From: an uncultured Flavobacteriaceae bacterium
GTDB taxonomy: Bacteria; Bacteroidota; Bacteroidia; Flavobacteriales; Weeksellaceae
DNA: 39,380 nt
Reading direction: 5' to 3'
Assembly (NCBI GenBank): GCA_963519505.1
Contig: CAUQOP010000001.1
Location: 1-39,380, forward strand
This document shows, piece by piece, positions 8 through 39,380 of the stretch (positions are counted from its first letter, which is position 1; the number at the start of each line of letters is the position of its first letter). The notes under the pieces were generated by a model. It was not told the DNA's origin and did not search any database. It worked only from the letters and a program-made list of their open reading frames with translations. Made by a program: the position numbers and the translations under genes.

Positions 8-1168
8 ATGAAAATGGAAAGATTTTTTATGAAAGGGAAATTTATAAGTAGCATACTAGTGCTGTTGGCACTGGCAGACTGCAGCCCCAAAGATAAATAT
101 GAATGGAATGCGGGAATGTCTGCACCTAAATATTATGGGAATGGAGGTCCAATGGTAGAGTATTTTTATAAAGGTAAAAGTGTAGCAGGGGCTTCCGCTA
201 ATATAGGTTTCTCTCCAGGCTGGGGAGTGACAGCGGGAGGCTATTCTGGAGGAGACCAATACAAGGATATCCCTGATAGTGTGGCTGTCAGCTGGATATG
301 TGCTACCGATAGAATAGAATACAGAGGAGGAGTGCGGCTTCCAAGGGAGCGCATGCTCGAGCTTTTTAAAAATGGGTTCAAGACAGTCTACGGTATGAAG
401 ACCACCTACACTTCTATAGTAGCAGGAATGGCTCCTGGAGGAAATGCTACCATATGGCTGCGTGGCTCTGAAAGACTTACAGAAATTATCAGGTTCAAAG
501 CAGAGAATAATGGAATATGGAAAGAACATGATGAAGACTATAACAGATATAAGAAAGAAGTAACTTCTTCAAAAAGTTATATAAATTCTGAAGGTAGTAT
601 ATTTCGGTATCTTCATGGCGTACCCTATGATGTTTGGGAAAAAGGAGACAAGGAATACGACTATGATATAGGTTTCAGCAGCGAGGGAGGACAAAAAATA
701 AAACCAAATGTTTTTACATTTTACACCAAAGACGGCACATGGTACCAGCCGAGCAAGGGAGATTTGGCTTTTCAGTCTGTAGACTGGCAGGAATGGGGTA
801 AATTTGAGTATAAAGAAAATAACAATCTTATTAAAAAACTAAAACTTCCTGTTGAGATTCATTTTTCGGTGGATTATAATGATGTTCTTTATATGGGGAA
901 CATCGTCCTTCCTCAAGATTTCAAGAAATATTTTGAAAACCAAGCCAATAACAGGATAACGATAGGGGTGGAAAAGAATTTAGAAACAGGTATTTTATGG
1001 GTATCGGGAAAGAAAGGCTTTCAAAAAGTCATGAGGTTTAAATTAGTAGAAGTTAAAGATGAAGAGCAGCCTTATTTTTATTCCCTGCCTAAAGGATTTA
1101 AGATTCCCAAATGGAACGGAAGAACTCCGATTGCCACGCCAGAGTTTGACTACTGGCAGGAGGAGTAG
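8..1168 (+). CDS. Lipoprotein, DUF2931-like T6SS immunity protein (Tli-type), paralogue A
   Basis: 386-aa ORF. The likely true start is the 8th codon (nt 29), giving the lipoprotein signal MKGKFISSILVLLALADC. By eye it is roughly 85-90% identical to ORF 38130..39296, which directly follows a DUF2235 effector. It shares the motifs PDS..V.W....Y.....LP and GMAPGG...WL.G with ORF 17368..18462. The immunity role is inferred from position and lipoprotein character. Confidence 0.6.
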   Translation: MKMERFFMKGKFISSILVLLALADCSPKDKYEWNAGMSAPKYYGNGGPMVEYFYKGKSVAGASANIGFSPGWGVTAGGYSGGDQYKDIPDSVAVSWICATDRIEYRGGVRLPRERMLELFKNGFKTVYGMKTTYTSIVAGMAPGGNATIWLRGSERLTEIIRFKAENNGIWKEHDEDYNRYKKEVTSSKSYINSEGSIFRYLHGVPYDVWEKGDKEYDYDIGFSSEGGQKIKPNVFTFYTKDGTWYQPSKGDLAFQSVDWQEWGKFEYKENNNLIKKLKLPVEIHFSVDYNDVLYMGNIVLPQDFKKYFENQANNRITIGVEKNLETGILWVSGKKGFQKVMRFKLVEVKDEEQPYFYSLPKGFKIPKWNGRTPIATPEFDYWQEE

Positions 1169-5296: not shown

Positions 5297-5585
5297 ATTG
5301 TTTTTAAAACTAAAACAAAAATAAATATTTATTTTTTAATTTTAAATCATATTTAATCATTTATATAAAGTATAATAAATACCAAACAATATATAAATAA
5401 TATAAAAATTAACTCTTTAAAGAAAATCCTATCCTAAGATAAATGATCTCTTCTTGGACTTTTATTTATATTTATTAACTTTTATTTTCCTTTTAAAAAT
5501 AAAAAAGACTTTTATTATATTTTAATATACTTTTAAGAAATCCGTTTATTCCCTTGTTTAAGGGCGATAGAGCTCGTTTTGAAGG
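5297..5585. other. Extremely AT-rich non-coding stretch next to the iterons (candidate DNA unwinding element of oriV)
   Basis: About 290 nt with almost no G/C and no ORF, directly abutting the iteron array. Confidence 0.4.
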
Positions 5586-5909
5586 GAGTGGAATTCCGAA
5601 AATAGGAGAGTGGAATTCCGAAAATGAGAGGAGTGGAATTCCGAAAAACCCTTGTTTTCAAGGAGAGTGGAATTCCGAATAAAGTATTTTTAGAATTTTT
5701 TAGGGAGTGGAATTCCGAAAATGAGAAAATTTTGAACTCCTTAGGGGAGTGGAATTCCGAAAATGAGCGTTTTTCTCGTTGTTTTTTTCTCATATTTGAA
5801 GATTAGGGAGTGGAATTCCGAAAACGGGAGGAGTGGAATTCCGAAAATAGGAGAGTGGAATTCCGAAAATGAGAAAATTTTGAACGCTTTGGGGGAGTGG
5901 AATTCCGAA
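5586..5909 (+). repeat. Iteron array (candidate plasmid oriV)
   Basis: There are ten same-orientation copies of the core GAGTGGAATTCCGAA (consensus about RGAGTGGAATTCCGAAAAT). They start at 5586, 5608, 5631, 5665, 5705, 5747, 5808, 5831, 5853 and 5895. Two clusters have 22-23 bp spacing. The core contains the palindrome GGAATTCC. The array lies immediately 3' of the Rep-like gene. Confidence 0.85.
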
Positions 5910-5940
5910 TTATTTATCATTTGTATATTATCTTTATTTT

Positions 5941-7026
5941 TTAGAGTATTTTGGGATATCCTTCTGGAAGTATTTTCCCTGTATGAGTTTGTCTATACAA
6001 AATAATGATATATTCCTGAAATTTTTGTAAGAATGATTGACCAATAAATTCTGTTGCTTTTTTGCCATTTCTTCTATTATTTTTTACAAACTCCTTATAA
6101 GCTTCTTCTAATAAATTTCTGCTGTTTACTATATTTTTATAATGATAAGCAAGGTGGGTCATTTCATTTTCTGATAATTGATGTCTTCTTATGAAATATC
6201 GTAATCTTTGTCTCACCAAAGTAGCATCTTGGGTCTCTTCAGAAATGCTATCATCTTGGATTCTTTTTGTAGCATATGGTTTTATATGAATTCTATTCTT
6301 GTCAATGCTATAATTAAATGATGTTTGATTATACCTATCTAGATTCTCTCTTATTGGTTTCAAAAATTTACTGCAAAAATCTTTAGTTGTAGAGTAATTT
6401 ATTCCAAACTTTTCGTTAAAAGTCTCTAGTTTCAAAGTAGTTCCTTCATAAGGTATTTTTGCTAGCCAAATTGCGAAAATAACATGTTTGTTATTCCTAA
6501 TATTATAAACTAAATTATATAATGTTGGATTATATTCAGGAATTACAATAAGTTTTTTGAGCCAATAACTGCTGATTAAGAAAGAAGTATACCCGCGCTC
6601 ATCATAAGTAGGTGCGGTTATAAGGCCTCCAAAGGTCTTAATTTCCTTGCCTTTAGAATTTATTGAGTTATACCAACCCATTTTAAATTTTGTAAGAAAT
6701 TCAACGGCTTCTATGACTTGCTTGGAACTTCCACTTGGAGAAATTAAACTGTTTTTAATTTTCATTGAAGCAAATGTATTATGCTCTGACTCAAATTCTT
6801 CCTCAAAAAGAGACAACTGCATTGGTCTGTCTTGTGGTCGAAGCTGTTCATTTCTCAAATCTGCTGCAATATTAAATATCGCCCTAAGAGCATTAATAGG
6901 GATGTCTACTGCTTTATTATCTTCAAATAAAAAATCATCAACAAAACTATTCCCTAGTCTAATAATTTCGGTTTGGGTCAAGTTTTTGTAACTCTTTCGG
7001 ACTATTCTTTTCTCGTTATCTTTCAT
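5941..7026 (-). CDS. Putative plasmid replication initiator (Rep)
   Basis: 361-aa ORF adjacent to the iteron array and near ParA. The size is typical of iteron-binding Rep proteins. The assignment is mainly contextual. Confidence 0.55.
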   Translation of the reverse strand: MKDNEKRIVRKSYKNLTQTEIIRLGNSFVDDFLFEDNKAVDIPINALRAIFNIAADLRNEQLRPQDRPMQLSLFEEEFESEHNTFASMKIKNSLISPSGSSKQVIEAVEFLTKFKMGWYNSINSKGKEIKTFGGLITAPTYDERGYTSFLISSYWLKKLIVIPEYNPTLYNLVYNIRNNKHVIFAIWLAKIPYEGTTLKLETFNEKFGINYSTTKDFCSKFLKPIRENLDRYNQTSFNYSIDKNRIHIKPYATKRIQDDSISEETQDATLVRQRLRYFIRRHQLSENEMTHLAYHYKNIVNSRNLLEEAYKEFVKNNRRNGKKATEFIGQSFLQKFQEYIIILYRQTHTGKILPEGYPKIL

Positions 7027-7114
7027 ATTTTTTTATTACCTTTGCAGAGCAAGAAGAGATTATTTATCTCAAAATAAAGCCTACATTACTTTTAAAGTTT
7101 TGGAGGCTTTTCTT

Positions 7115-7657
7115 TTATGGATAATCTACTAGCGGATGACTTTGCACTGTGTTATTCTCCTGCTCTATGATATCAAATTTTATTTTGCCGAAGCCTATTT
7201 CCTCTCTTTCAATTTTATGTTTTTTAGATAAATAGTATTGGTATAAATCTTCTTTACCTTTTTTTATTGACTCTTCATAAATCCATTTATAAATAGTTAT
7301 TTGATCTGATTTCACCTCCAAAATTTGGCTGTTGGCAATAAAAACATTGCGAATAATGGTAAAATTATTCCTTTCATAAGGAATTGGAATAAAATATCCC
7401 GTTCCTTTTTTGTTCTGAATAGAGTTTAGATAAAGTCTTATAATTTCTTTTTTCTTTATCATCAAAGGATTTCTAAAATTCCCCACTATTTCATGTGTTT
7501 TTTTTCGCCTTACATTATAATAAAGCCATTTTTGTGCATGAGAAAATTTATCTTCAATAAATCTATGAAACTTAAACAGACCAGTATTAATATTGTGATA
7601 AACCACAACCTCTCCTGTACTCAATTTTACTGCTGCTTCATAAGATTTATTTGTCAT
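7115..7657 (-). CDS. Hypothetical protein (last gene of the parA operon)
   Basis: 180-aa ORF on the same strand as parA, 5 nt after the preceding ORF. No motif was recognised. Confidence 0.45.
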   Translation of the reverse strand: MTNKSYEAAVKLSTGEVVVYHNINTGLFKFHRFIEDKFSHAQKWLYYNVRRKKTHEIVGNFRNPLMIKKKEIIRLYLNSIQNKKGTGYFIPIPYERNNFTIIRNVFIANSQILEVKSDQITIYKWIYEESIKKGKEDLYQYYLSKKHKIEREEIGFGKIKFDIIEQENNTVQSHPLVDYP

Positions 7658-7662
7658 ATCTA

Positions 7663-8097
7663 CTAAAATTTATCCTTGTATTTTGTTTTCAACTCCTGTA
7701 CTATTTCTGAAAATAGTTTCATTTGAGAAAAATCTAACTCCCCTTTTGTAAAAATGGTATAAAAATGATAGTTTTTTAAGTATTCAGAATCTTCCTCTGT
7801 CAGATAAGTGGATGTTATTTTCACTTCTCCAGGATTTTCCCTTCTTCCTGGTCTATACCTCACATTGGCTTTTCTTTGTTCCATCTTCCCTTTTGTCTGA
7901 CGGAGTAACTCTATTCCATCACTTATAGCTTTGGCATTGGTATATTCCAAGTTTTCATTTTTTACAATCTCATATTTTACGAATTCTTTAAGCCATTCCC
8001 AATCTGCTAGATAAATCCTAAAGCCATATTTAACCATTTTAGGTTTTTCTTCTTCTGGTTTTGAATCCAATATATCTAATTGAAAAACATTGTCCAT
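7663..8097 (-). CDS. Hypothetical protein, possible ParB-analogous partition adaptor
   Basis: 144-aa ORF starting 1 nt after the parA stop, which suggests translational coupling. This is the usual position of a centromere-binding partner. The segment KYGFRIYLADWEWLKEFV could be a ribbon-helix-helix element. The functional call is weak. Confidence 0.35.
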   Translation of the reverse strand: MDNVFQLDILDSKPEEEKPKMVKYGFRIYLADWEWLKEFVKYEIVKNENLEYTNAKAISDGIELLRQTKGKMEQRKANVRYRPGRRENPGEVKITSTYLTEEDSEYLKNYHFYTIFTKGELDFSQMKLFSEIVQELKTKYKDKF

Positions 8098-8098
8098 T

Positions 8099-8848
8099 TT
8101 ATCCTTCTATTTTCTTTATAATTTCTTTAACTAACTGTTTATAATCTTCACTTGCTCTTGATAAAGGCGCAACCTGAAAAATAGTTTTTCCTTCTTTTTT
8201 AGCATTTTCTACATTTACATCTTGCCGAATATAGGTCTCCAAAAAATACTGTCCTGCTTGTTGTTTTGCTAAATCACTATATACTCTAAAATTTTTAGTG
8301 TTAGTAAGAACTTTATTGAAGAAAAAACCTAAAAATTGTAACTTCGGATTATAATTATCTATAATTCTTTTTACTGATGGTAATAATTCATTAATCCCTT
8401 CAATAGAATACTCCTCTGCCTCAATTGGTGAAAGTACATAATCTGAAGCACAAAGTGCAATTTCTCCCAAACCCACTCTGCCACTTAATGGACGAGGCGG
8501 ACAATCTATTATAATGTAATCCAAATTCATTTTACTAGATAATATATCTATCATATCTTTCAAGACTGTTCTTTTATAATCTGTCTCCTCTACCCCTCTA
8601 TCTCCTGCTAATATGAATAAACTTTCTCCTTTTTGTGTCAAACGAAAATTACCTGTCTTCTCAATAAAATTTTTAACCGTATAAGGAAAATCTTTTGGTA
8701 TCTTATATCCAATTGACAAATTCCTTTGTGAATCAAAATCTATAATCAAAACGCGCTTTTTCATTTCTGCAAACGACGCTCCTAAATGAATAGATGTTGT
8801 GGTTTTTCCTACACCTCCTTTTTCAGTAATGATAGATATTACCTTCAT
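8099..8848 (-). CDS. parA: ParA/Soj-family partition ATPase
   Basis: 249 aa. It has the deviant Walker A ITEKGGVGKTTTS at the N-terminus and DCPP in the Walker B region. Confidence 0.9.
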   Translation of the reverse strand: MKVISIITEKGGVGKTTTSIHLGASFAEMKKRVLIIDFDSQRNLSIGYKIPKDFPYTVKNFIEKTGNFRLTQKGESLFILAGDRGVEETDYKRTVLKDMIDILSSKMNLDYIIIDCPPRPLSGRVGLGEIALCASDYVLSPIEAEEYSIEGINELLPSVKRIIDNYNPKLQFLGFFFNKVLTNTKNFRVYSDLAKQQAGQYFLETYIRQDVNVENAKKEGKTIFQVAPLSRASEDYKQLVKEIIKKIEG

Positions 8849-13573: not shown

Positions 13574-15541
13574 ATGAAAATAATAGGCGAAACAGCACCA
13601 TTAACAGGCAGGGATTACCAGTATAAACTGGTCAATGATAAGCGTGAAAAAGTTGCCGTAAAAGAATGGCAGGTAGTATTAGATGGAATAATATTAAAGA
13701 CCAACAGTACAGGGGAGTTTGTATTTAATATGAACTTAGCAATGAAGACGCTCAAGATATTAGCATTTACCAGCAATAAAACTTATACACTGAGTGTGTC
13801 CGTTGTAATGGGGGCTCCCACTGTCAGCTGGGTAGAATGGCAGGATATTGAAGGGAAGCCATTAAAGGGGCGTAAAGTAGGCTATTTAGATAAAGTTCGG
13901 CTGTGTATACAAACACAAAATATTCGTAAGGGAGAAAAACTAACAGTTACCATTTATGAAGACCAATTTCTTGATGGACATGGATTATCCTCTACAACAA
14001 TGGGAACTTACCAAACGATAGGTGTCAATAAGAATGGCAGGGCTTATTTATTACTTAATAATATTAAAGTTTATAGAGGTAAACTTAATGTTGATTTTAT
14101 TGATGAATCAGAACATGAATACTATGTTAGAATTGTATATAATAAAATCATTGATATTATAAAAGATGATGTACAGCTCATAGTTCAAAATGAACTGAAA
14201 CAATATATAAAACCTAAACAAACGAACACTCCTGTAAAAGTAGGTGCTTCTAAACCACCGAAAAAAAACACAAAAAAGGAAGAAGTAGATATAACTTTTA
14301 ATCTATTTTTTGATGGAACACAGAATAATAAACAAAATACTTTTGAAAGGCATAAAAATTCCGAAGCATACCGAAAATTCAGCAACAAAAAAGATGATAG
14401 TTATATGAATGAGCTGTCTAATGTAGCTATTTTAGACGAGATTGCGATAGATTCTAACCATATGCACAAAATTTATAATTGGGGGATAGGTTCTAATGTT
14501 AGAGGAAAAGATGAAAAGTCTGTAGTTGGTTTAGCTATAATGGCAGATTTATCAGATATAGGAGATATTCCTAAAGTAGAAGTGGACAAAAGCCTTTTCT
14601 CCTCCCTTAAAGGAAGGATAGAATGGACATTTTCAAAAATGGAAAAGATAGTAAAAATAAAATATTCAAAAAATAAAATAAAAACAGCAACTTTTAATAT
14701 TTTTGGATTTAGTAGAGGTGCGACAACTGCCCGATATTTTATGTCTTTGGAAAACAGAATAAAAACTACTTTACAATTAGATTCTATCCAAAACATTATC
14801 TTTAATTTCGTTGGGTTGTTTGATACTGTTGCTTCTTTTGGATTTCTCCACTATAATGATGTGGAGCAGTTGAATCTCACAGCAGTGAGTAAAGCAAAAA
14901 AGGTGGTACACCTTATTGCAGCTAATGAATATAGAGAATATTTTGCTCTTTCGGATATTAGTAGCGCAATAAAAAAAGGAGTAGGATATGAACTAGTTCT
15001 TCCTGGTGCTCACTCAGATATAGGAGGTGGTTATCCAAAAATAGAGGAAGAAGTAAGGTTTCTGGACAGTGAAGTACACCCCAAAAAGGAATTTACTAAA
15101 GAGATTAATGCAACAAAGGGGAAATATATGGAATCAGGCTGGTATACCATACAACAGCTTGAAATAGAAGAAGGATATGTGAGAGAGAGTGGATATGTAT
15201 GTAACCTGTATGGAAAACGAAAACTTACAAATGAATATCAGTATATTTCTCTAAAAATAATGAAATATTTTTGTGAGAAATATACAAAAATGAGTTTTAA
15301 TGAATCTGAATTTTCTCGATATCGTGTAAAAAACTCTTTTTTACAACAAATAGAAAAAGAATTATACGAATATGCTATTGCCAACGACAGTGCCTCCAAA
15401 AAAATAGCAAGCCCTAATTATAGAGACTTGAAAATATTGAGAAATAAATTTTTACATATCTCACACAAGAAAAATGAACTATTTTTGGATGGACGGCTAA
15501 ATAATAAAGGAGAATTAGAAAGAGAAATAAAAAAGGGATAA
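13574..15541 (+). CDS. DUF2235 alpha/beta-hydrolase T6SS effector (Tle1-like phospholipase) with about 230-aa N-terminal extension
   Basis: The four DUF2235 hallmarks are readable: FFDGTQNN, the GxSxG nucleophile elbow in FGFSRGATTARYF, GLFDTVASFG, and PGAHSDIGGGY. It follows the PAAR-like gene by 14 nt. Confidence 0.85.
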   Translation: MKIIGETAPLTGRDYQYKLVNDKREKVAVKEWQVVLDGIILKTNSTGEFVFNMNLAMKTLKILAFTSNKTYTLSVSVVMGAPTVSWVEWQDIEGKPLKGRKVGYLDKVRLCIQTQNIRKGEKLTVTIYEDQFLDGHGLSSTTMGTYQTIGVNKNGRAYLLLNNIKVYRGKLNVDFIDESEHEYYVRIVYNKIIDIIKDDVQLIVQNELKQYIKPKQTNTPVKVGASKPPKKNTKKEEVDITFNLFFDGTQNNKQNTFERHKNSEAYRKFSNKKDDSYMNELSNVAILDEIAIDSNHMHKIYNWGIGSNVRGKDEKSVVGLAIMADLSDIGDIPKVEVDKSLFSSLKGRIEWTFSKMEKIVKIKYSKNKIKTATFNIFGFSRGATTARYFMSLENRIKTTLQLDSIQNIIFNFVGLFDTVASFGFLHYNDVEQLNLTAVSKAKKVVHLIAANEYREYFALSDISSAIKKGVGYELVLPGAHSDIGGGYPKIEEEVRFLDSEVHPKKEFTKEINATKGKYMESGWYTIQQLEIEEGYVRESGYVCNLYGKRKLTNEYQYISLKIMKYFCEKYTKMSFNESEFSRYRVKNSFLQQIEKELYEYAIANDSASKKIASPNYRDLKILRNKFLHISHKKNELFLDGRLNNKGELEREIKKG

Positions 15542-15545
15542 AACG

Positions 15546-16664
15546 ATGCAAAAAATATTAGTAATAATAGGAATAGTGATGAATAGTATAATAGCAAATG
15601 GGTGCAAAAAATACCAAGAACCTGAAAATGAGATATATGATGTACTAACAGGAGCAACAGCAGATAGAGGATACTCTATGAATATGTACCACGGATATTT
15701 AGAATATGAGAATGATGTTAACCATATTCCTATAGGAGATGGGCATGGTTATCTTAGTACAGGTTTATGGAATAATCATTTTGTAGGCTGGGATAAATAT
15801 CGTGCTCCAGATTCATTGGATATACGATGGTTATCAATTACAGAAGATAAGTTCTATGAAGGGAAATTCAAATTCTCTGAAGAACTAAAACAGAAAATGA
15901 AGACTTTTTCGAAAGAAAAAAGTGTCTTATTGAATTTTGTTCTCTTACCAAAGGGACAGATTTGGCTGTATATGATAGATGAAAATCGAGAATTAGTCCA
16001 AAAATATCAAGCTCAGGAAATAAGCGTTTTGGGGCAAGAAGAATTTACTAAACGAGTATTCTTTTATTTACCAGATAGAAATGATATCGAAAGCCGAAAA
16101 GAATATATAAAATCTAGGATAAGTGAACTGCCAGCCCAAACCCAGAAAGAAGTAGCAGAAGGGACTATTCCTACAGATTATTGGGAGAAACTAGACAAAC
16201 GATATTTATGGAATTTCAAAATAACCCCATCTATATTAGGGAAAATAGAAGTGGTAAACAAAGAGAAGGGTTATATCAATTTTCTGAATGCGGAATTATT
16301 TAGTTTTAGTGCTTTAAAAAAAGAAAGAGCTATTCCTATCTATATAGAATATGAATCTGCGATAGAGAACAGCTATGAGTTTACCACAAGAATCTATCTT
16401 ACAGGAGTTCCAGGGAAAGAAGACATGAATTATCTGCCATACGAACAGATGCGGGCAAGAGAGCAGGAATTGATAAAATTATTTTCAGATTTTTATGAAA
16501 AAATTGGCAGGAAAGAGTTTGAAATTTATTTGAAACTAGATGACATGTTTATCCCAAAAGGGCTGTATCTGAAACATGGTGAGATAGAACAGAAAATTCC
16601 TAATGTATACATAGAAGCCTTTAATGATACTTTTGATAAAGAACTTTACATTGGTGTAATGTAA
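15546..16664 (+). CDS. Lipoprotein, DUF2931-like immunity candidate
   Basis: 372 aa with the lipobox ..SIIANGC. It starts 4 nt after the effector stop. It shares PDSLDIRWLS...FYEG and ..IWLY...E.....YQAQE with the other immunity paralogues. Confidence 0.55.
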   Translation: MQKILVIIGIVMNSIIANGCKKYQEPENEIYDVLTGATADRGYSMNMYHGYLEYENDVNHIPIGDGHGYLSTGLWNNHFVGWDKYRAPDSLDIRWLSITEDKFYEGKFKFSEELKQKMKTFSKEKSVLLNFVLLPKGQIWLYMIDENRELVQKYQAQEISVLGQEEFTKRVFFYLPDRNDIESRKEYIKSRISELPAQTQKEVAEGTIPTDYWEKLDKRYLWNFKITPSILGKIEVVNKEKGYINFLNAELFSFSALKKERAIPIYIEYESAIENSYEFTTRIYLTGVPGKEDMNYLPYEQMRAREQELIKLFSDFYEKIGRKEFEIYLKLDDMFIPKGLYLKHGEIEQKIPNVYIEAFNDTFDKELYIGVM

Positions 16665-16739
16665 AAAAAGGAATCAAGTATATTACAAAATGATTTTTGG
16701 ATTGACTAAAGCGATTTTCTAAAAATATGAAATTTTGAT

Positions 16740-17378
16740 TTGGCAGATATTTCTTCTGTTGCCAAAACTTCGCCAGACAGTGGTAAAAAAGGAGGAATAG
16801 AACTATTTTTCCCTGGTGTGCATTCTGATGTAGGCGGCAGCTATGTAGACGGCGCTCCCAATATATCATATAAAATAAACTTTTCTTCTGAGATGGAATT
16901 TTTAACAAAAGAGAAAGAAGAACTCATACGGCAAGGCTGGTTCTCTAGCCAGCAAATATCTGTGAAGTATTATCTTACCATACATGGACTCAATAACTAT
17001 CGTTTAGAGGGAATTAAAAATAGTGTAAGCAACCAGTACAGTTATATCCCGCTGCATATTATGGCTGAATTTGGCAGAAAAAAAGGGGTACAATTTGATA
17101 ACAATATACTTTATAGTTCATCTAAAATTACTAATAACCCTGATTTCCTTAATAAAGTGAAGAAAATTCTGTGGGATTATAGTTTTAACGGCGGTCCACG
17201 CTTGGTTTATAAAGAAAAAGGCACCGAGGCAGAAAATGAACTGATTAGAAAGTTAAGGCTGTACTATCTCCACTGGAACTCTACCTACGGCACGATAGAT
17301 GATTCCCTTGGGGCTTTCGTAACTGGAAAGGACAAACCTAATTTTAAAAATAGTAAAAGACAACGAGATGTATATTAA
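16740..17378 (+). pseudogene. Orphan C-terminal fragment of a third DUF2235 effector
   Basis: The 212-codon frame opens at a TTG. It contains only the His motif (FPGVHSDVGGSY) and the C-terminal region, which is alignable to residues about 470-600 of ORF 13574..15541. The FDGT, GFSRG and LFDTV motifs are absent. Confidence 0.65.
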
Positions 17379-18462
17379 AAATTTAATCACTTGTTTCTGC
17401 TTGATTTTTTTATTAACCCACTGTAAAGAAAATCCTTTTATGAAAACAGAGAAATATCCTTATGCTGTTACAGCTACAGGTCCCGAAGGTTATCCTATGG
17501 AAGTACATATGGGCTACTTCTTGGATGAAAAAGAAGAGCTGATATGCGGTGTGCCTAGAACAGGTTCCTTGAGTGCAGGCTGGCAGGGTGATGCAGCCGA
17601 AGGCGGACAAAATGGAGATAAAATACCTGCCTATCTATCCCTTACCTATGTTTCCTATGCAGAAAAGAAGTTCTATAATGTAGAGGCCAAGCTCCCTGCA
17701 GAAAAAATCCTTGAAGAATTTAGAAAGGGATATAAACTAAAAAAGTACATGAGTGATGAAACAGAAGACCTGACCTATGGGAAACTAACGGTAGGTATGG
17801 CACCTGGGGGAGTGGTTGTCCTATGGCTTTCTGGAAAATCTCATCGCGTAGAAATCTGCAGACTGCAGGCTAAAGAAGTCTTTGTAGACAAGGACGATTT
17901 CAGAAGAAGAGTTTTTGAAAATGAAACCCAGCAGGAGTTTTTTGATGTTGCTTATGATTTAGCCCTCTCTGACAGCATAAAACAAGATATCAAAGAAAGA
18001 GGGATTCCGTTTGGGCTGTGGGATGAGTATAGAGAAAAATACAACTACCGCTTTACTTTCAGACCTTATGATGACAGAGATAAATTTACTTATATAAATG
18101 CTCTATATTATAATGGAGAAGCAGAAGAAATTTTAAAGCCAGACCTTGCCCTAAAAAAATATACTTCCAGAGGTATTCCTTATAGGTGTAATTTTATATT
18201 TTTCTCATACAGCACAGAGATTATTTTTAATGACAGAGAGATGATACAGGTTTTCAAAGAACTGAAGAAAAAACACCCTGGCAAGCCTATAGATATTATC
18301 CTGACTCCTACTTTTCTATATAACGAAATAAAAGTATCTGTAAAATGTGAAGACGAAGAAATCCCTCTATCCAAATACATAATGGAAGGCGTCTGGGGAG
18401 AATCCATAGATGATGCCATAGAAAGGAGAGCTTTAGAAGAAAATAACGGTAATGGGGAGTAA
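17368..18462 (+). CDS. Lipoprotein, DUF2931-like immunity protein cognate to the orphan effector fragment
   Basis: 364 aa with the lipobox LLTHC. Its start overlaps the fragment's stop by 11 nt. The motifs LTVGMAPGGVVVLWLSGKSHRVEICRLQAKE match paralogues A and B. Confidence 0.6.
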   Translation: MYIKNLITCFCLIFLLTHCKENPFMKTEKYPYAVTATGPEGYPMEVHMGYFLDEKEELICGVPRTGSLSAGWQGDAAEGGQNGDKIPAYLSLTYVSYAEKKFYNVEAKLPAEKILEEFRKGYKLKKYMSDETEDLTYGKLTVGMAPGGVVVLWLSGKSHRVEICRLQAKEVFVDKDDFRRRVFENETQQEFFDVAYDLALSDSIKQDIKERGIPFGLWDEYREKYNYRFTFRPYDDRDKFTYINALYYNGEAEEILKPDLALKKYTSRGIPYRCNFIFFSYSTEIIFNDREMIQVFKELKKKHPGKPIDIILTPTFLYNEIKVSVKCEDEEIPLSKYIMEGVWGESIDDAIERRALEENNGNGE

Positions 18463-26352: not shown

Positions 26353-26416
26353 TTTATAAATGCACAAATAAATATGCAATTTATAATTATTTTTGCATAT
26401 TTCAAAATGCAAAAGC

Positions 26417-33418: not shown

Positions 33419-33452
33419 GTTCAATTAACAAAAAACATTAAAAATTAGTTTT

Positions 33453-33839: not shown

Positions 33840-33882
33840 GCTGGAAGATCAGCCCATTTACAAAAACAAAATAATAAAAAAT

Positions 33883-33937
33883 GGACAATAAAAAACTAAT
33901 GCTTAATTATGTTTTTTGTTGTTCGTTTTTCTTTTTT
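33883..33937 (+). terminator. Possible weak rho-independent terminator/attenuator after hcp copy 2
   Basis: GGACAATAAAAAAC (33883-33896) can pair with GTTTTTTGTTGTTC (33911-33924), including G-U pairs. It is followed by GTTTTTCTTTTTT. The stem is AU-rich, so this is uncertain. Confidence 0.3.
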
Positions 33938-34019
33938 AAGAACCTAAAATATCAGTAGATTGAAGGGTTAAAAAAGTAAAAGATTAACATAAATCATTAA
34001 CTATTAAATATTAAGAAAA

Positions 34020-34481: not shown

Positions 34482-36341
34482 ATGAATATCAATAAAATCC
34501 GCTCGTTTGGGGAATGGCTTAGTGACAAAGAAAATCCTATGGTCTATTGCCTGCTGAGCCTAGATGGTGAGCCCTTTTTGTCCCGAAACAGCTATGAAGT
34601 GATTCTAGAGCAGAAAACCAATGCACATGATACATTCAGCATTATTGTTCCTGATGATGCGCTGGATACTTATGAGGGCTTTGTGATGGAAAATTCCAAG
34701 AAACTTTTAGGGAAGAAAATCAGCTTGAGTTACTGGCAATATGGTTCTGAGAACCAAGTGTTTTCAGGAATTGTTACAGGACTGAAGAACCGAAAAGAGA
34801 GCGGCTACGGAAAGCTTGTGATTACAGGTCACTCGCCGAGTATTCTGCTGGAAAACGGCAGAGCAGACCGCAGTTTTGAGCAATTATCTTTATCGCAGAT
34901 TGTCAAAGAAATAGGGGTGAATTATCCTCAGGAAGGAAAAATCCATGCTGAAGAACAGGAACTCAATGTGAGAAGAGTTCTCCCTTATACGGTTCAGTCA
35001 CAGGAGAGTGATTTTGGTTTTATCCAAAGACTGGCAACGCGCTATGGTGAGTATTTTTACTATAATGGTAAGGAACTCATCTTTGGAAACAAAGCAGAGC
35101 CTGTTTTGGAACTTTCAGAGGGCAGAGAACTGATAGAGCTAGAGTTTGAATTAGGTCTAAGAGCTCAAGGATTCAGCGGTCTTGCCTATGATGCAGAAAA
35201 GGGTGAAAGTATCCAGCATAATGCTCAGGAAGTTCAGACAGAATGGAAAGAAAACGCCCTGCAGGCAGTGGCTGTACAGGCTTCCAAACAGCTCTTTGGG
35301 AATGTGCCAAAGAGTGTATTCAGTGGAAGTGAAAAATCTCAGGAGTTAGAAGAAATGCTTTTAAAGGAGAAAGAAAACCGTGAGAGCTTGATTTGGGTAA
35401 GAGGTAGAAGCAGAGATTCCAGGCTGAAAAATGGCAGCAGAGCGAAATTGATGGACATCAACGGACGGGCGATGGAAACTTATAGAATTGTAGAAATCAG
35501 ACATTACTACAATGGTGATGAATACTACAATGAGTTTGTAGGAGTGTCTGATGTGCTGCACCCACCATATCAGGATAGTGGAGCCTTTCCAAAGTCACAT
35601 GAACAAATGGGCAGAGTGGTAGAAAATGCTGACCCACTGGGACTGGGCAGAGTAAGGGTACAGATGGTGTGGCAGGAGGCAGGAAGTGAAAAGACCCCTT
35701 GGATAAGACTTTTGCAGCCACACAGTGGAAGTGGAAAGGGATTTTATTTTGTTCCAGAAATTGGCGAAGAAGTATTGGTGGGCTTTCAGGGAGGAAATGC
35801 CGAAAAACCGTATGTCATCGGAACACAGTACAACGGCAAGGAAAAGTCTGGCTATGCTGATAAAGAGAACAGCATCAAAGCAGTGCATACAAGGAGTGGG
35901 ACGAAAATTATACTCAATGATTCGGAGGGAAGCATTTTAATAGAAGACCCCAGCGGAAATACCTATCATATGGACGGACAGGGAAATATCAAAGTCTCTG
36001 CACCGAAAAACATCAGCTTTACAGCTGGACAGAATATCAACATCAGTGCTGGGCAGAATATTACCACAACTGCTGGAATGAACATCAGCACTTCAGCGGG
36101 AATGAATTACACCCAGATAGTTGGCGTGAATTTCGTAAGCACAGTGGCTGGAAATGTAAATCATTTTATCAGTGGAACTTTGACTGAGCTTATCGAAGGA
36201 GATGTCCATAATGAAGTAATGAAAGGCAAAACAACAGTGAATAATGATGGCGGAATAGAATATTTTTCCGAAACGACCATCAGCAGAAGTGCAGAAAAAG
36301 AAATCCAAAATAACAGCGGTGAAAAATCTAAATTGTTTTAG
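34482..36341 (+). CDS. vgrG: VgrG/TssI spike protein
   Basis: 619 aa. The gp5 OB-fold hallmark is GRVVENADPLGLGRVRVQMVWQ...TPWIRLLQPHSGSGKGFYFVPEIGEEVLVGFQGGNAEKPYVIG. A beta-helical repeat region follows (SAGQNITTTAGMNISTSAGMN). Confidence 0.92.
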   Translation: MNINKIRSFGEWLSDKENPMVYCLLSLDGEPFLSRNSYEVILEQKTNAHDTFSIIVPDDALDTYEGFVMENSKKLLGKKISLSYWQYGSENQVFSGIVTGLKNRKESGYGKLVITGHSPSILLENGRADRSFEQLSLSQIVKEIGVNYPQEGKIHAEEQELNVRRVLPYTVQSQESDFGFIQRLATRYGEYFYYNGKELIFGNKAEPVLELSEGRELIELEFELGLRAQGFSGLAYDAEKGESIQHNAQEVQTEWKENALQAVAVQASKQLFGNVPKSVFSGSEKSQELEEMLLKEKENRESLIWVRGRSRDSRLKNGSRAKLMDINGRAMETYRIVEIRHYYNGDEYYNEFVGVSDVLHPPYQDSGAFPKSHEQMGRVVENADPLGLGRVRVQMVWQEAGSEKTPWIRLLQPHSGSGKGFYFVPEIGEEVLVGFQGGNAEKPYVIGTQYNGKEKSGYADKENSIKAVHTRSGTKIILNDSEGSILIEDPSGNTYHMDGQGNIKVSAPKNISFTAGQNINISAGQNITTTAGMNISTSAGMNYTQIVGVNFVSTVAGNVNHFISGTLTELIEGDVHNEVMKGKTTVNNDGGIEYFSETTISRSAEKEIQNNSGEKSKLF

Positions 36342-36343
36342 AA

Positions 36344-38173
36344 ATGAGCAGAACAAGGATTGTAAAAGGTAAAATAACCGAACGCGTAAAAGGAGATATT
36401 TCTATTTACTCTGCGAGTAATATAATAGAAACTTCGCTGCAGAGTATCGTAGAAACAGGAAAAGAAAAAGGAATTAGTTTTGGGCAGCCATCAAAACCGA
36501 CTGAGTATCAACCAGAAAACACTATAATTCTCTACATAGGAATGTTTTTTGACGGAACAGGGAATAATCGTTTTAATTCTGAAAGTCTGTATTACACGAA
36601 AGTAAAAGGAAATAATGATAGAATAAAATCATCTGAAATTCCCACTCAGTTGTCTTTTACTCTCACACCAGAAAAGATAAAGGAGAAAGATATTAGTAAA
36701 ATAAATATTTCGAATAGAGACAGCTATTGGAACCCCTACTCCAACATTGTAAAACTCCATGACTTATACAAAGAAAAGAGTGAAGCAAAAGGGAAAACTC
36801 ATATTATCAAACAATATGTTGAGGGCATAGGTACTGAAAAGTACAAGGAAGACAGTGTTGGTGGTTCAAGTATAGGAAGGGGAGATACAGGAATTATAGC
36901 GAAGGTAGAAAGAGGAATCAAAGATTTAGTAAGAGAAAAAATCGCTACTCTTCCCAAAGACAAAAAGATTTATAAAATCGTATTTGATGTTTTTGGGTTC
37001 AGCAGAGGAGCAGCGGCAGCCAGACATTTTTGTAATGAGGTAAAAAAACCAGCCTATTATGTAACAAGAACCAAACGGGACCCTTATGACAAATATGACA
37101 GAAATGCAAGAATACTTACGGACGAAAAAGATCTAGTGAAGCATGCAGGTGGAATTTTGGGAACGGAACTAAATAAAATAGGCCTTAAACCCTACGAAGA
37201 GACCTATAACAATATAGAAATAAGATTTTTAGGATTATTTGATACGGTAGTTTCGGATTTAGTAGTGAAAGAAAATTTAGGTTATATAGCTACTCTTTTT
37301 ACTACTAAACCATGGATACCTATCATAGCACAGGAGTATTTAGAAGACATTAAAACCAATATATCAGGTTTAGGAATAAAAAAAGTCTTCCAAATAAGAG
37401 CAAATGATGAGTGGCGGGCGAACTTTGCCTATACTCCTACAGAGGATGGCTACACACTATATATGCTGGGAGCTCATTCTGATATAGGCGGAGGCTATGC
37501 GGAGCTGGATAAGTATACTTCTATACTAGGTTTTTTCGATGCTACAAAGGGCGGTGAGGAAATCTTTAAACAGCAAGAAAAAATCCGAAAATATTTCATA
37601 GATAATAATTACTGTAAGGAAAATGAGATATGGTTTGAGAAGATCTATGAGCATACTTCAGGTTTCGCTATAGAGTCTTCCCCTACGGAGACCACCACCA
37701 TTTATAAAAAGAAGATTTCTGATCATTATATCCTGAAAACTTCCCGCTATATTTCTAACAAATACAGCCTTGTGCCAATGTATGTCATGCTCCAAAAAGC
37801 CATTGATTATGGAGTGCCTTTTTATAAAGATTATAATGAGGCAAAAAAAGGAGGTAATAGGATCGACTACCCTTTTGAATATGAAATCCCAGATACAGAG
37901 GAGTTTGAAATGCTGAGAGAGTATTTAAAGAAAATGTTAGATGTAAGCAAAGATGAGAGTAAGAAGAGCTACAGTCTTTCATCACCAGAAATGTTTAAAC
38001 ATATACGCAATCGTTATGTGCATTTGTCCTCGCATTATGCAGGGCTTGACACTTTAGGGCATAAAGATGGCGACCACCATTTTTCAGGAGATTTATTATT
38101 TATTAACCGACCTGTAAAATACAAAGAAGATGAAAATGGAAAGATTTTTTATGAAAGGGAAATTTATAAGTAG
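36344..38173 (+). CDS. DUF2235 alpha/beta-hydrolase T6SS effector (Tle1-like phospholipase), VgrG-linked
   Basis: The hallmarks are FFDGTGNN, FGFSRGAAAARHF, GLFDTVVSD and LGAHSDIGGGY. It starts 2 nt after the vgrG stop. Confidence 0.85.
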   Translation: MSRTRIVKGKITERVKGDISIYSASNIIETSLQSIVETGKEKGISFGQPSKPTEYQPENTIILYIGMFFDGTGNNRFNSESLYYTKVKGNNDRIKSSEIPTQLSFTLTPEKIKEKDISKINISNRDSYWNPYSNIVKLHDLYKEKSEAKGKTHIIKQYVEGIGTEKYKEDSVGGSSIGRGDTGIIAKVERGIKDLVREKIATLPKDKKIYKIVFDVFGFSRGAAAARHFCNEVKKPAYYVTRTKRDPYDKYDRNARILTDEKDLVKHAGGILGTELNKIGLKPYEETYNNIEIRFLGLFDTVVSDLVVKENLGYIATLFTTKPWIPIIAQEYLEDIKTNISGLGIKKVFQIRANDEWRANFAYTPTEDGYTLYMLGAHSDIGGGYAELDKYTSILGFFDATKGGEEIFKQQEKIRKYFIDNNYCKENEIWFEKIYEHTSGFAIESSPTETTTIYKKKISDHYILKTSRYISNKYSLVPMYVMLQKAIDYGVPFYKDYNEAKKGGNRIDYPFEYEIPDTEEFEMLREYLKKMLDVSKDESKKSYSLSSPEMFKHIRNRYVHLSSHYAGLDTLGHKDGDHHFSGDLLFINRPVKYKEDENGKIFYEREIYK

Positions 38174-39296
38174 CATATTGGTGCTGATGGTGCTGGCAGG
38201 CTGCAGCCCCAAAGATAAATATGAATGGAATGCAGGAATGTCTGCACCTAAATATTACGGGAATGGAGGTCCAATGGTAGAGTATTTTTATAAGGGTAAA
38301 AGTGTAGCAGGGGCTTCCGCTAATATAGGATTTGATCCAGGCTGGGGAGTGACAGCAGGAGGCTACTCTGGAGGAGAACAATACAAGGATATCCCCGATA
38401 GTGTGGCGGTTCGTTGGGTCTGCGCTATAGACAGAATAGAATATAGAGGTGGAGCACGGCTTCCGAGGGAGCATATGCTCGAGCTTTTTAAAAATGGGTT
38501 CAAGACAGTCTACGGCATGAAAACCACCTACACCTCTATAGTAGCAGGAATGGCTCCTGGGGGAAATGCTACCATATGGCTGCGTGGCTCCGAAAGACTT
38601 ACAGAAATTATCAGGTTCAAAGCAGAGAATAATGGAATATGGATGGAACATGATGAAGATTATAACAAATATGAAAGAGAAACTATTACTTCAAAAGAAT
38701 ATATAAATTCTGAATTTAATATATTTCGGTATCTTCATGGTGTGCCCTATGATGTTTGGGAAAAAGGAGACAAGGAATATGACTATGATATAGGTTTCAG
38801 CAGCGAGGAAAAAGATGTAACACCTTATATGGTTTTTTACACCAAAGACGGCACATGGTATCAGCCGAGCAAGGGAGATTTGGCATTTCAGTCTATTGAT
38901 TGGCAGGAATGGGGTAAATTTGAGTATAAAGAAAATAACAATCTTATTAAAAATCTGAAACTTCCTGTTCAGATTCATTTTTTATTTGAGTATAAAGGAG
39001 GAAATTATAGTACAGGAATAATTCTTCCCCAAGATTTCAAGAAATATTTTGAAAACCAAGCCAATAACAGAATAACGATAGGGGTGGAAAAGAATTTAGA
39101 GACAGGTATTTTATGGGTATCGGGAAAGAAAGGCTCTCAAAAAGTAATGAGGTTTAAAGTATTTAAAGCCAAGGAAGATGACATGGGAGATTTTTATCCA
39201 GGAGGTTATTCCTTTCCTAAAGGATTTAAAATTCCCAAGTGGAACGGAAGAACTCCTATCGCCACACCAGAGTTTGACTACTGGCAGGAGGAGTAG
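38130..39296 (+). CDS. Lipoprotein, DUF2931-like immunity protein, paralogue B
   Basis: 388 aa. The likely start is nt 38151 (MKGKFISSILVLMVLAGC). Its 5' end overlaps the effector's last codons. It is a close paralogue of ORF 8..1168. Confidence 0.62.
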   Translation: MKMERFFMKGKFISSILVLMVLAGCSPKDKYEWNAGMSAPKYYGNGGPMVEYFYKGKSVAGASANIGFDPGWGVTAGGYSGGEQYKDIPDSVAVRWVCAIDRIEYRGGARLPREHMLELFKNGFKTVYGMKTTYTSIVAGMAPGGNATIWLRGSERLTEIIRFKAENNGIWMEHDEDYNKYERETITSKEYINSEFNIFRYLHGVPYDVWEKGDKEYDYDIGFSSEEKDVTPYMVFYTKDGTWYQPSKGDLAFQSIDWQEWGKFEYKENNNLIKNLKLPVQIHFLFEYKGGNYSTGIILPQDFKKYFENQANNRITIGVEKNLETGILWVSGKKGSQKVMRFKVFKAKEDDMGDFYPGGYSFPKGFKIPKWNGRTPIATPEFDYWQEE

Positions 39297-39305
39297 GGTG
39301 TATTG

Positions 39306-39376
39306 TTAACCGACCTGTAAAATACAAAGAAGATGAAAATGGAAAGATTTTTTATGAAAGGGAAATTTATAAGTAG
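39306..39376 (+). pseudogene. Duplicated remnant of the last about 23 codons of effector 36344..38173
   Basis: 39306-39380 is identical to 38103-38177. It encodes ..NRPVKYKEDENGKIFYEREIYK* without the rest of the gene. Confidence 0.65.
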
Positions 39377-39380
39377 CATA
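39333..39380 (+). CDS. 5' end of a further immunity-gene copy running off the window (the same gene as 8..1168 if the molecule is circular)
   Basis: MKMERFFMKGKFISSI.. is identical to nt 8-55. Confidence 0.6.
   Translation, partial: MKMERFFMKGKFISSI

Follow-up and report, generated by a model that had tools for sequence, protein, structure and literature searches.

Why does a bacterial locus carry two neighbouring immunity genes with a scrap of the effector gene between them, and does the exact repeat at their boundary mark a recent duplication? These questions arise from the 3' end of the window, namely the stretch of 39,380 nucleotides analysed here, in which an effector gene (E1) is followed by the immunity genes immA and immB (Table 1). 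A sequence-only reading had described the repeated unit as an effector tail plus an immunity gene and had proposed its amplification followed by diversification. Taken as a whole, we consider it likely that the window represents a ~39.3-kb circular plasmid of a Riemerella-like bacterium within Flavobacteriales, and that this plasmid encodes a T6SSiii and bears an old tandem array of a single origin with modules that have since been shuffled.

The plasmid and its effector locus

The first and last 55 nt of the window are identical (positions 1-55 equal 39326-39380 and also 38123-38177) and constitute the terminal overlap of a circular contig; the real molecule is therefore a 39,325-bp circle, and the ORF at the start of the window is a gene starting in repeat copy 2, as had been supposed for the case of a circle. 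Indeed, the join of the window ends is bridged by the related contigs L001, L005, L006, and L007. The circular topology is also backed by a plasmid maintenance module, in which an iteron-like array (GGAGTGGAATTCCGAAAA) adjoins a Rep-like gene. A protein on the R. anatipestifer plasmid pRCAD0416RA-1, where the order of the four-gene module (Rep-180aa-144aa-ParA) is the same, shares 74% identity with the Rep-like protein, which also has homologues at 33-36% identity on other Flavobacteriales plasmids. In terms of gene content and contig evidence, a plasmid replicon was thus found, with circular topology and predicted replication and partition genes. Megablast of the entire window against PLSDB gave zero matches, and protein-level searches of plasmids hit only the Rep relative and one weak DUF2931 match on a Bacteroides plasmid. 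The same molecule carries the T6SS genes for three Hcp proteins, TssB/C/E/F/G/K/N/O, and ClpV, whereas a homologue of TssR was not recognised on it. Complete T6SSiii clusters are rare on plasmids, with 2 among 43,213 RefSeq plasmids in a 2026 survey (PMC13098142), and the T6SSiii plasmid itself is a rarer item than the tandem immunity genes.

E1 matches PF09994, the Tle1-family domain, with an E-value of 2.5e-15 and 57 bits (cut-off 27), and its translation contains GFSRG (VFDVFGFSRGAAAARHF), a serine motif of the G-x-S-x-G type as defined in PMC7245790; furthermore, the gene starts 3 nt past the stop codon of the VgrG gene. E1 is predicted to be a Tle1-type phospholipase delivered by the T6SS. 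Both immA (E 1e-19, 71 bits) and immB (E 4e-19, 69 bits) match PF11153 above the cut-off of 22, and the two are predicted immunity lipoproteins for E1. More than 120 database variants of immA are found at 94-98% identity, and among solved structures none is sequence-related to it; a search for an internal duplication of two DUF2931-like halves in the immunity protein gave weak matches (E 0.07 and 0.012). The true start of immA is likely the third ATG at 38151 (MKGKFISS...LAGC lipobox) and not the first ATG at 38130, because the third ATG is the only one retained in the orphan copy L003_1 and in distant homologues; the true start of immB is likely at 29. When inspected by eye, the lipobox is canonical in immA (...VLMVLAGC), and LAGC is also present in the relatives inspected, whereas immB of the window has LADC instead (...LLALADC, with Asp at -1), which may hamper lipidation. 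On the plus strand, no terminator was found between the effector, immA, and immB, although the scans for sigma-70 promoters and for terminators are both uninformative here, Bacteroidota promoters not being modelled by the scan.

Table 1. Positions of the effector loci, the immunity array, and the plasmid maintenance genes in the window
Feature	Position	Strand	Basis or remark
Plasmid maintenance module	5583..8848	-	iteron-like array, Rep-like gene, two small genes, ParA
Iteron-like array	5583-5929	-	adjoins Rep-like gene
Rep-like gene	5941-7026	-	plasmid maintenance module
ParA	8099-8848	-	plasmid maintenance module
Second effector locus	13574..18462	+	domain matches, sequence comparison; same logic as E1 locus
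E2, Tle1-like	13574-15541	+	second locus
imm2a	15546-16664	+	second locus
C-terminal remnant of third Tle1-like effector	16740-17378	+	second locus; 31% identical to E2
imm2b, orphan DUF2931 gene	17368-18462	+	3' of third-effector remnant
VgrG	34482-36341	+	domain matches; directly 5' of E1
E1, Tle1-like (DUF2235) phospholipase effector (predicted), 609 aa	36344..38173	+	PF09994 match
E1 hypervariable loop (~aa 497-523)	37829..37907	+	comparison with relatives
Repeat copy 1	38103..38177	+	exact match; E1 stop and the 22 sense codons before it, with overlap of the immA start
immA, DUF2931 lipoprotein immunity gene (predicted), 388-aa ORF, allele Na-Ca	38130..39296	+	PF11153 match
immA variable patch N (aa 172-197)	38643..38720	+	population alleles Na, Nb, Nc, Nd
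immA variable patch M (aa 225-238)	38802..38843	+	within C module (Ca/Cb)
immA variable patch C1 (aa 283-298)	38976..39023	+	within C module (Ca/Cb)
immA variable patch C2 (aa 340-362)	39147..39215	+	within C module (Ca/Cb); 4-codon indel vs immB
Junction J1	39297..39305	+	GGTGTA, the 3' flank common to both immunity genes, then TTG
Repeat copy 2	39306..39380	+	exact match; effector-tail remnant and immB start
immB, second DUF2931 immunity gene (predicted), 386-aa ORF, allele Nb-Cb	8..1168	+	PF11153 match

The repeat and the junctions of the array

The exact 75-nt repeat (TTAACCGACC...GTAGCATA) noticed in the sequence-only reading was confirmed at a spacing of 1203 nt; no third copy exists in the window at up to 3 mismatches, and the expectation from 100 shuffles is 0 matches. 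In copy 1, effector codon 587 is represented by 2 nt, and codons 588-609 are followed by the stop codon at 38171-38173; the repeat grows to 78 nt with one mismatch (TTA/TTG) when it is taken from 38100 and 39303. At the junction between the two units (J1), the TTG accordingly has its counterpart in the effector in the TTA at 38100-38102. The units 38100-39302 and 39303-(1174) are homologous over their full length and are arranged in tandem, head to tail, and the proposed "effector tail plus immunity gene" is thus a real unit of 1203 (1206) bp behind the Tle1-like effector. The effector-tail remnant precedes immB because the immunity start sits within the last codons of the effector; a duplication that keeps a working start therefore has to begin inside the effector.

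J1 was read in more than 10 contigs of other samples, and its sequence (GGGTGTA|TTG|TTAACC) was found in every multi-copy relative with the junction read, whether plasmid or chromosomal: namely, it is identical in the plasmid relatives L001/2/5/6/7/8/9/11/14, in the chromosomal L013 (364-kb scaffold), L022 (254-kb contig), and L024 (245-kb contig), and in the array L003 with no effector. A second junction (J2) carries an effector tail of ~118 nt and lies at a 13-nt near-homology (TGTAGTATAGAGA / TGTGGCATAGAGA) between the 3' flank of the immunity gene and the effector. The two independent junction types show that the process recurs.

It might be argued that the array is an artefact of assembly, produced either by placing the alleles of a single immunity gene from two strains one after the other or by a false closure of the contig at a repeat; the 55-nt end overlap, which also occurs internally, is a classic spot for graph errors, and the scaffold of L002 has a gap within repeat copy 2. 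The sequences flanking the junction, however, share no long k-mer, and a de Bruijn mis-join could therefore not make the junction. Furthermore, effector, immA, repeat, immB, and tssB are read without a break in L001, L005, L006, L007, L014, L017, and L022 from other samples and assemblers; for example, L001 is a MEGAHIT k141 contig with 99.9% identity, and L005 is a JGI contig of 37.8 kb. Contigs including those at k=141, which exceeds the repeat length, cross both the array and the window join, and the replicon is a genuine plasmid. For practical purposes, the artefact reading is refuted, the chance left to it being minute, and the array stands as it had been read from the sequence.

Age of the array and exchange of its modules

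immA and immB are 84.6% identical as proteins and 86.8% as DNA, with the differences clustered in four patches. Outside the patches, the paralogues differ with dS 0.29, dN 0.023, and omega 0.08, whereas dS of tssB, tssC, tssK, and tssE between relatives is 0.04-0.11. Judging from these comparisons, the array is old and not recent, because J1 is common to plasmid and chromosomal relatives and the paralogue dS exceeds that of the neighbouring genes; both immA and immB are preserved intact under purifying selection. Within the patches, dN ~ dS ~ 0.6 (dS 0.62) with omega ~1, and the test is thus silent for or against positive selection; the patch-wise alignment called for earlier does reveal the four patches, but its dN/dS neither supports nor opposes selection on them. 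Distant relatives (43-52% effector identity) have one DUF2931 gene each, so that an effector with one immunity gene is the ancestral layout. In the earlier proposal of amplification followed by diversification, the duplication and the variation of copy number in the population hold, while the event is old in view of the shared J1 and the dS of 0.29.

When ~20 related loci were typed, all of which are metagenome contigs or MAGs, with strain mixtures that could yield some chimeric mosaics, discrete allele modules (a-d for N; a/b for C) were found in differing combinations and at either array position. In L005 and L007, the segment of ~nt 231-690 of the unit has exchanged its position relative to the window, L006_B is a hybrid, and in L014, copies A and B agree at 460/460 nt of their gene bodies. 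In a runs test, the mosaic blocks were reached in 0/20,000 permutations. A fixed rule of Ca at position A and Cb at position B was also considered and is broken by L021, L023, and L031 (Cb first) and by L022 (Ca twice). The variable patches are thus modules reshuffled between positions and loci by recombination or gene conversion, and their previous reading as in-situ diversification by point mutations is contradicted by these discrete, conserved modules; among the ~20 loci, recombination between paralogues rather than slow divergence makes most of the variation.

The 75-mer has 71-74/75 identical bases (1-4 mismatches) in relatives. It is hence one among many tracts of conversion or conservation, since the repeats of relatives differ and the L014 copies are identical over their body, and the remark that the boundary repeat stayed identical while the gene bodies diverged applies to the window lineage only. 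Its perfect identity in the window plasmid is presumably a local outcome of conversion, not a mark of recent duplication, and constraints from dual coding, the translation-initiation region, and the signal peptide may be a further cause. An exact boundary repeat should accordingly not be taken as a sign of a recent event.

The copy number of immunity genes is 2 in most loci, 1 in L021 and L025, at least 3 in L024, and 3 in L003; the single gene of L021 and of L025 may reflect a collapse by the assembler or an ancestral condition instead of a deletion. The single gene of L021 is Nb-Cb, alone behind the effector, and fits a 5'-A/3'-B hybrid of an L005-type array equally with a plain Nb-Cb allele like immB of the window; indeed, Na-Ca and Nb-Cb both occur as complete alleles elsewhere. 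L003 is a chromosomal effector-less array of DUF2931 genes related to immA, immB, imm2a, and imm2b and adjoins a tyrosine integrase on its downstream (3') side. Because L003 and the effector-linked three-copy array of L024 are collinear, L003 was acquired as a block, not cassette by cassette. A 197-aa ORF within L003 was considered as a remnant of E2 and is not recognisable as such. Another chromosomal contig, L010, carries a lone orphan immunity relative. These chromosomal orphan-immunity arrays from the same study series match and suggest an arms race.

In the mechanism that we propose, the array would have arisen once, either by an illegitimate (microhomology-type) tandem duplication or, equivalently, by the joining there of two already diverged alleles; its origin lies in the ancestor of the whole clade and predates the split of plasmid and chromosomal loci. 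At the population level, homologous recombination and gene conversion shuffle a small set of allele modules between positions and loci, and now and then remove or add a copy. The immunity pair would most likely widen the protection of the carrier against several circulating allelic forms of the effector, and it is less likely that the two proteins act together.

A recent local amplification, followed by positively selected point mutations in the patches and with the 75-mers identical because they are young, would account for the exact repeat in the window and for differences that cluster in four patches and include many amino-acid changes and indels. Outside the patches, nonetheless, dS is 3-6x as high as for neighbouring genes when relatives are compared; plasmid and chromosomal relatives have the junction in common, and the repeats of relatives contain mismatches; the patch alleles form a discrete and conserved set that other loci carry at either position, with Nc resembling the same patch in homologues that are just ~40% identical; and the patch omega of ~1 comes with a dS that is also raised. 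We hence regard such a history as very unlikely, and its timing is contradicted already. Immunity genes might instead be integron-like or rAID-like cassettes inserted by a site-specific recombinase at the 75-mer, given that L003, beside an integrase, contains the unit 38100-39302 again with identical limits and that rAID arrays carry repeated intergenic sequences (10.1101/471110). The repeat is, however, plain effector coding sequence with no hairpin or attC-like structure at 39285-39380 (-2.5 kcal/mol, z 0.32 vs shuffles), J1 and J2 interrupt the effector at two separate positions, the surroundings of the effector-linked arrays lack a tyrosine recombinase, and the one recombinase found in the window, a serine resolvase (26417-26992), is located ~11 kb upstream of the array. 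Together with the block uptake of L003, this makes a cassette system extremely improbable.

Sequential displacement deserves more weight but is, in our estimate, still unlikely: an incoming module (the effector 3' part and immA) from a diverged relative would have recombined into the locus and replaced most of the 3' end of the resident effector, and the last 71 nt with immB would be left as an orphan. Displacement, for which a model is published (PMC5361080), plainly operates in this family; in L011, a new effector and two new lipoprotein genes are inserted behind VgrG and followed by a VgrG 3' remnant, with the old effector split in two ORFs, and at the second locus of the window, the remnant of a third effector precedes imm2b. 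The divergence of immA and immB beyond that of the backbone, the complete Na-Ca and Nb-Cb alleles, and the lone Nb-Cb of L021 would also be in accord with it. On the other hand, a different-type immunity gene with the remnant of a different effector is present at 16740-18462 and in L011 but absent at the E1 locus, where immB is 85% identical to immA, both genes belong to the same subfamily, and the tail of the resident effector itself is what the remnant (nearly) reproduces; J2 at its near-homology is also what unequal intralocus recombination would give. The two models predict the same final structure, and the signal that distinguishes true duplication from the joining of diverged alleles is erased by extensive later recombination, which blurs the difference.

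The hypervariable loop of E1 has four alleles among relatives (KKGGNRIDYP in the window, ADDDADVKNS, IKNKVNIKNP, and TP---KPPYR). A pairing of the loop allele with the N-domain allele of the neighbouring immunity gene was hinted at by charge complementarity in the window and L005 and failed with more loci; indeed, the ADDDAD loop is found beside Nb-Ca, Na-Ca, Nb-Cb, and Nd-Ca at position A. Across ~20 loci, zero covariation of loop and immunity alleles was found, and the idea of one immunity allele per effector allele is therefore so far unsupported. It appears unlikely, though worth stating, that the loop and the two-position array form a kin-discrimination locus with conserved linker blocks, including the 75-mer, as crossover points. 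If true, new combinations of attack and defence would be formed fast on plasmid and chromosome, in a cassette shuffling comparable to antigenic-variation loci, and the chromosomal orphan arrays in neighbouring cells would be a counter-move.

Comparison with known systems

Tandem immunity genes of the Tle1/DUF2931 type and orphan-immunity arrays are an arrangement already known. In the arrays of V. cholerae, immunity genes are proposed to have accumulated by sequential displacement of effector-immunity modules, and duplication was argued against (Kirchberger et al. 2017, PMC5361080, where the orphan CT/immunity strings of Rhs and CDI loci are also cited); the retained immunity genes are thought to be protective against kin keeping other effector alleles (PMC5361080). 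Like those arrays, the present locus is a recombination-made mosaic with immunity genes that lie 3' of the active pair and are preceded by effector 3' fragments, and the second locus of the window and L011 fit the displacement model directly. Unlike in V. cholerae, the E1 locus has two closely related immunity paralogues (85%) and a remnant that corresponds to its resident effector, so that a true tandem duplication is no less probable than displacement.

The effector-less orphans in L003 and L010 also resemble the AID/rAID-1 islands of gut Bacteroidales (Ross et al., bioRxiv 10.1101/471110). The integrase of L003 is, however, downstream of the array and not at the 5' end as in rAID-1, and a scan of window proteins revealed no tyrosine recombinase; unlike an AID island, furthermore, the window carries the effector and thus the weapon side. 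In V. cholerae, Tli1tox- and Tli1tox+ are DUF2931 proteins that are ~80% identical and differ in the Tle1 neutralised (PMC10395195), and, by analogy, immA and immB with their 85% identity could differ in specificity; that pair, however, comes from different strains and loci and not from a tandem array.

Among the closest arrangements is tle1-tli1-tli2 of A. hydrophila NJ-35, in which tle1 is followed by a pair of DUF2931 genes, neither of which is dispensable (PMC7245790); related cases are Tli1a/Tli1b (DUF3304) of P. aeruginosa and the two immunity-like genes beside tle1 of EAEC (PMC13133936). The A. hydrophila locus and ours share the same effector and immunity Pfam families and a VgrG-linked effector, while the window, unlike the proteobacterial T6SSi Tle1 loci, represents a Bacteroidota T6SSiii on a small plasmid. 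Compared with loci of the A. hydrophila type, the effector-tail remnant of the window pins the junction, and the population data show module shuffling between the paralogues. The locus is a clear natural illustration of the building and upkeep of a T6SS immunity array, in which a scrap of the effector tail records the exact junction.

The immunity array and its reading in independent contigs

The 75-nt repeat (TTAACCGACC...GTAGCATA), which the sequence-only reading had taken as an effector tail running into an immunity start, indeed recurs exactly, with a spacing of 1203 nt between the two copies; a third copy was not found in the window at up to 3 mismatches, none being expected in shuffled sequence, and the repeat grows 3 nt leftward when one mismatch is allowed. 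Since the terminal 55 nt of the window are identical at both ends, the contig is self-closed into a 39,325-bp circle; the window represents an entire circular plasmid (about 39.3 kb) with two Tle1-type effector loci, and ORF 8-1168 (immB) is the gene beginning in repeat copy 2. Both immA and immB encode DUF2931 proteins with signal-peptide-like N-termini; between the two, identity is 84.6% at the protein level and 86.8% at the DNA level. The lipobox of immB reads LADC in the window, L001 and L002 but LAGC in immA and the relatives inspected (GGC to GAC), and this LADC may affect lipidation.

By exact-protein look-up and BLAST against the returned contigs, the order Hcp x3, VgrG, effector, immA, repeat, immB and tssB/tssC was found unbroken in contigs of other samples and assemblers. 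L001 (MEGAHIT k141; 99.9% identity across 6.9 kb) covers the join of the window, L005 (a 37.8-kb JGI contig) is uninterrupted through the array, and L006, L007, L014, L017 and L022 also read it without a break, while L002 has an N run within repeat copy 2. At the junction, furthermore, the immunity 3' flank is joined to effector coding sequence with no long k-mer common to both sides, so that a mis-join in the assembly graph could not have produced it; together with the independent contigs, this rules out an assembly artefact. The array is real, old, conserved under purifying selection and recombining: what the sequence-only reading observed is confirmed, and its interpretation holds in part.

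Features of the plasmid (window coordinates)
Feature	Position	Description
Repeat copy 1	38103-38177	3' end of effector ORF (22 sense codons + stop), overlapping 5' end of immA
Repeat copy 2	39306-39380	
Effector E1	36344-38173	Tle1-like; PF09994 match, GFSRG motif
Effector loop	37829-37907	short, hypervariable
immA	38130-39296	
Junction J1	39297-39305	
immB signal peptide	62-85	
Iteron-like array	5583-5929	about ten copies of GGAGTGGAATTCCGAAAA, 22-23-nt spacing; adjoins Rep-like gene; probably the replication origin
Rep-like gene	5941-7026	361 aa
Second effector locus	13574-18462	E2 (Tle1-like, 655 aa), imm2a, effector remnant, imm2b
Remnant of third Tle1-like effector	16740-17378	C-terminal, 31% identical to E2; followed by its DUF2931 gene imm2b (orphan)
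177-nt direct repeat	22144-22320; 26426-26602	90% identical
Ppl-like PHP/ATPase protein	22401-25220	
PDC-S01-like AAA protein	25159-26412	
Serine resolvase gene	26417-26992	minus strand
PDC-S27-like ATPase	27730-29088	
Hcp (TssD) genes	33032-34406	three in tandem

Age, allele modules and copy number

In the dN/dS comparison that the sequence-only reading had proposed, immA and immB gave two different answers: dS = 0.29 and dN = 0.023 (omega 0.08) outside the four divergent patches, and dN and dS both about 0.6, plus indels, inside them. Both copies are kept under purifying selection. For tssB, tssC, tssK and tssE, dS between the window and its relatives is 0.04-0.11. The junction GGGTGTA/TTG/TTAACC is common to every plasmid relative whose junction was read and occurs also in the chromosomal loci L013, L022 and L024, of which L013, within a scaffold of 364 kb, has phosphoglucomutase and further housekeeping genes on its flanks. 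A single DUF2931 gene follows effector homologues of 43-52% identity. Taken together, these results indicate one origin of the array, in this clade and long before the sampled loci separated.

When each copy was typed at the 151 sites distinguishing immA from immB and by its patch peptides, a few discrete conserved alleles were found, namely Na, Nb, Nc and Nd in the N-domain and Ca and Cb in the C module (patches M, C1 and C2 taken together).

Allele modules at the two immunity positions
Locus	Position A	Position B	Remark
Window	Na-Ca	Nb-Cb	
L005, L007	Nb-Ca	Na-Cb	unit segment about nt 231-690 exchanged
L006	Nb-Ca	Nb-Cb	hybrid B copy
L017	Na-Ca	Na-Cb	
L013	Nd-Ca	Nc-Cb	
L014	Nd-Ca	like A for about 1 kb	nt 231-690: 460/460 identical; b-type in patch C2 only
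L022	Nc-Ca	Nb-Ca	
L023	Nb-Cb	Nc-Ca	
L031	Na-Cb	Na-Cb	
L011	Nb-Cb	Nc-Cb	

The mosaic blocks are far from random, the observed number of runs being reached in 0/20,000 permutations. The Nc patch resembles the equivalent patch of homologues with an identity of only about 40%, while other homologues are the ones that Na/Nb resembles, so that the alleles either predate the array or have been imported. The patches consist of allele modules that have been shuffled, and not of point mutations gathered in place after the proposed amplification. Likewise, the contrast drawn between an identical boundary repeat and diverged bodies stands in the window lineage (75/75) but not in the relatives (72/75 in L005-L007, 71/75 in L011, 74/75 in L013 and L014), and L014 has a long identical stretch in the body itself. 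In repeat copy 2, the 48 nt 5' of the likely immB start are non-coding; as the between-copy synonymous rate (pS about 0.24) predicts about 12 differences for them, this tract would be either homogenised or constrained.

Copy number varies among loci: L021 and L025 have one immunity gene leading directly into the normal downstream flank, and L024 (245-kb contig) reads effector, imm1, J2, imm2, J1 and imm3 before the contig ends. The second junction type, J2 (GGGTGTG/GCATAGAGATGG...), includes about 118 nt of effector tail and is located at a resemblance between the immunity 3' flank (TGTAGTATAGAGA) and the effector (TGTGGCATAGAGA). J1 and J2 thus represent at least two independent additions of an effector tail plus immunity gene, the very unit that the sequence-only reading had named, and cut the effector at different points, both upstream of the embedded immunity start. 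A duplicate keeping its start would have to carry the effector tail.

Plasmid backbone, orphan immunity genes and displacement

The T6SSiii set of the plasmid is near-complete, with TssC, TssD (Hcp) x3, TssE, TssF, TssG, ClpV, VgrG, TssK, TssN, TssO, a DUF4280 PAAR-like protein and a PKD protein; TssB is likely encoded as well, as assigned by position only, and no TssR was recognised on the window. The first two Hcp genes are about 78% identical in DNA, and nowhere do the window and L001 differ more than in the Hcp region (96.9% vs 99.9% elsewhere). In the maintenance module, the GGAGTGGAATTCCGAAAA array is joined by the Rep-like gene, a pair of small genes and ParA. Riemerella anatipestifer plasmid pRCAD0416RA-1 has the same four-gene module, in which the counterpart of the Rep-like protein shows 74% identity; identity falls to 33-36% for proteins of plasmids from Capnocytophaga, Myroides, Flavobacterium and Chryseobacterium. 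The genome matches were to MAGs under the names uncultured Flavobacteriaceae and Riemerella sp. One copy of the 177-nt repeat forms the 3' terminus of the serine resolvase gene, the other being an intergenic remnant; the enclosed segment of about 4.2 kb, carrying the Ppl-like and PDC-S01-like genes, resembles a phage-defence islet acquired by insertion. Transfer of T6SS blocks between chromosome and plasmid has taken place: L013 1099-16767 is a chromosomal copy, 95-96% identical, of plasmid segment 29169 through 39325 to 5602 (from TssK to the effector, both immunity genes and tssB/C/F), with homology ending at the iteron region and housekeeping genes on the flanks.

Immunity genes also occur without an effector. 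L003 (574-kb scaffold) has three immA/immB-type genes, collinear with L024 across 2.5 kb (92.7%), genes closely related to imm2a and imm2b (98% and 91% identical in nt, respectively), another DUF2931 gene and an adjoining tyrosine integrase. Its chromosomal island (2479-19329) comprises one DUF2931 gene, several small genes of 120-144 aa in a row and hipBA, then six DUF2931 genes related to all four plasmid immunity genes, and finally the integrase; it is an effector-less poly-immunity array that would act against the toxins of this plasmid. In L010, which is chromosomal (RNase Y, UbiE and FabH lie close by), a solitary immA of 97% identity occurs together with another DUF2931 gene.

Displacement, as modelled by Kirchberger et al. 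(PMC5361080), is a live rival for the origin of the E1-immA-immB array, and it operates in this effector/immunity family too. The plasmid relative L011 (3937-10044) carries a new effector of 546 aa, inserted after VgrG together with two new lipoprotein genes; next come a VgrG 3' remnant of 123 aa, the old Tle1 gene, now split into two ORFs (331 aa and 257 aa), and the two DUF2931 genes; this may be displacement in progress or, as the split comes from a single MAG, an assembly error. In the second locus of the window, the remnant and imm2b are a textbook displaced-effector remnant.

Function of the pair and known systems

No plus-strand terminator was found between the effector, immA and immB, and the three may be co-transcribed. 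The effector loop has four very different alleles, including one basic (KKGGNR) and one acidic (DDDAD), in relatives otherwise 89-98% identical. L027, L028, L029, L031 and L041 match the window only at effector-gene nt 1-159 and 824-1830 with 1.7-3 kb of unrelated sequence between, so the N-terminal or central part of the effector has also been replaced or interrupted in some lineages; L041, with many frameshifts, looks like a low-quality assembly. The pair would probably broaden protection against the four loop alleles in the population; covariation of effector allele with immunity allele was tested among the typed loci and was negative. As precedents, DUF2931 proteins sharing about 80% identity have different specificities (PMC10395195), and in A. 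hydrophila two DUF2931 genes are needed together (PMC7245790).

The orphan copies of L003 and L010 resemble AID/rAID islands (10.1101/471110). The immunity array itself is of a kind already known, and the rarer feature here is instead the plasmid-borne T6SSiii: the window has no nucleotide match in PLSDB, and a 2026 survey found plasmid T6SSiii in only two of 43,213 RefSeq plasmids (PMC13098142).
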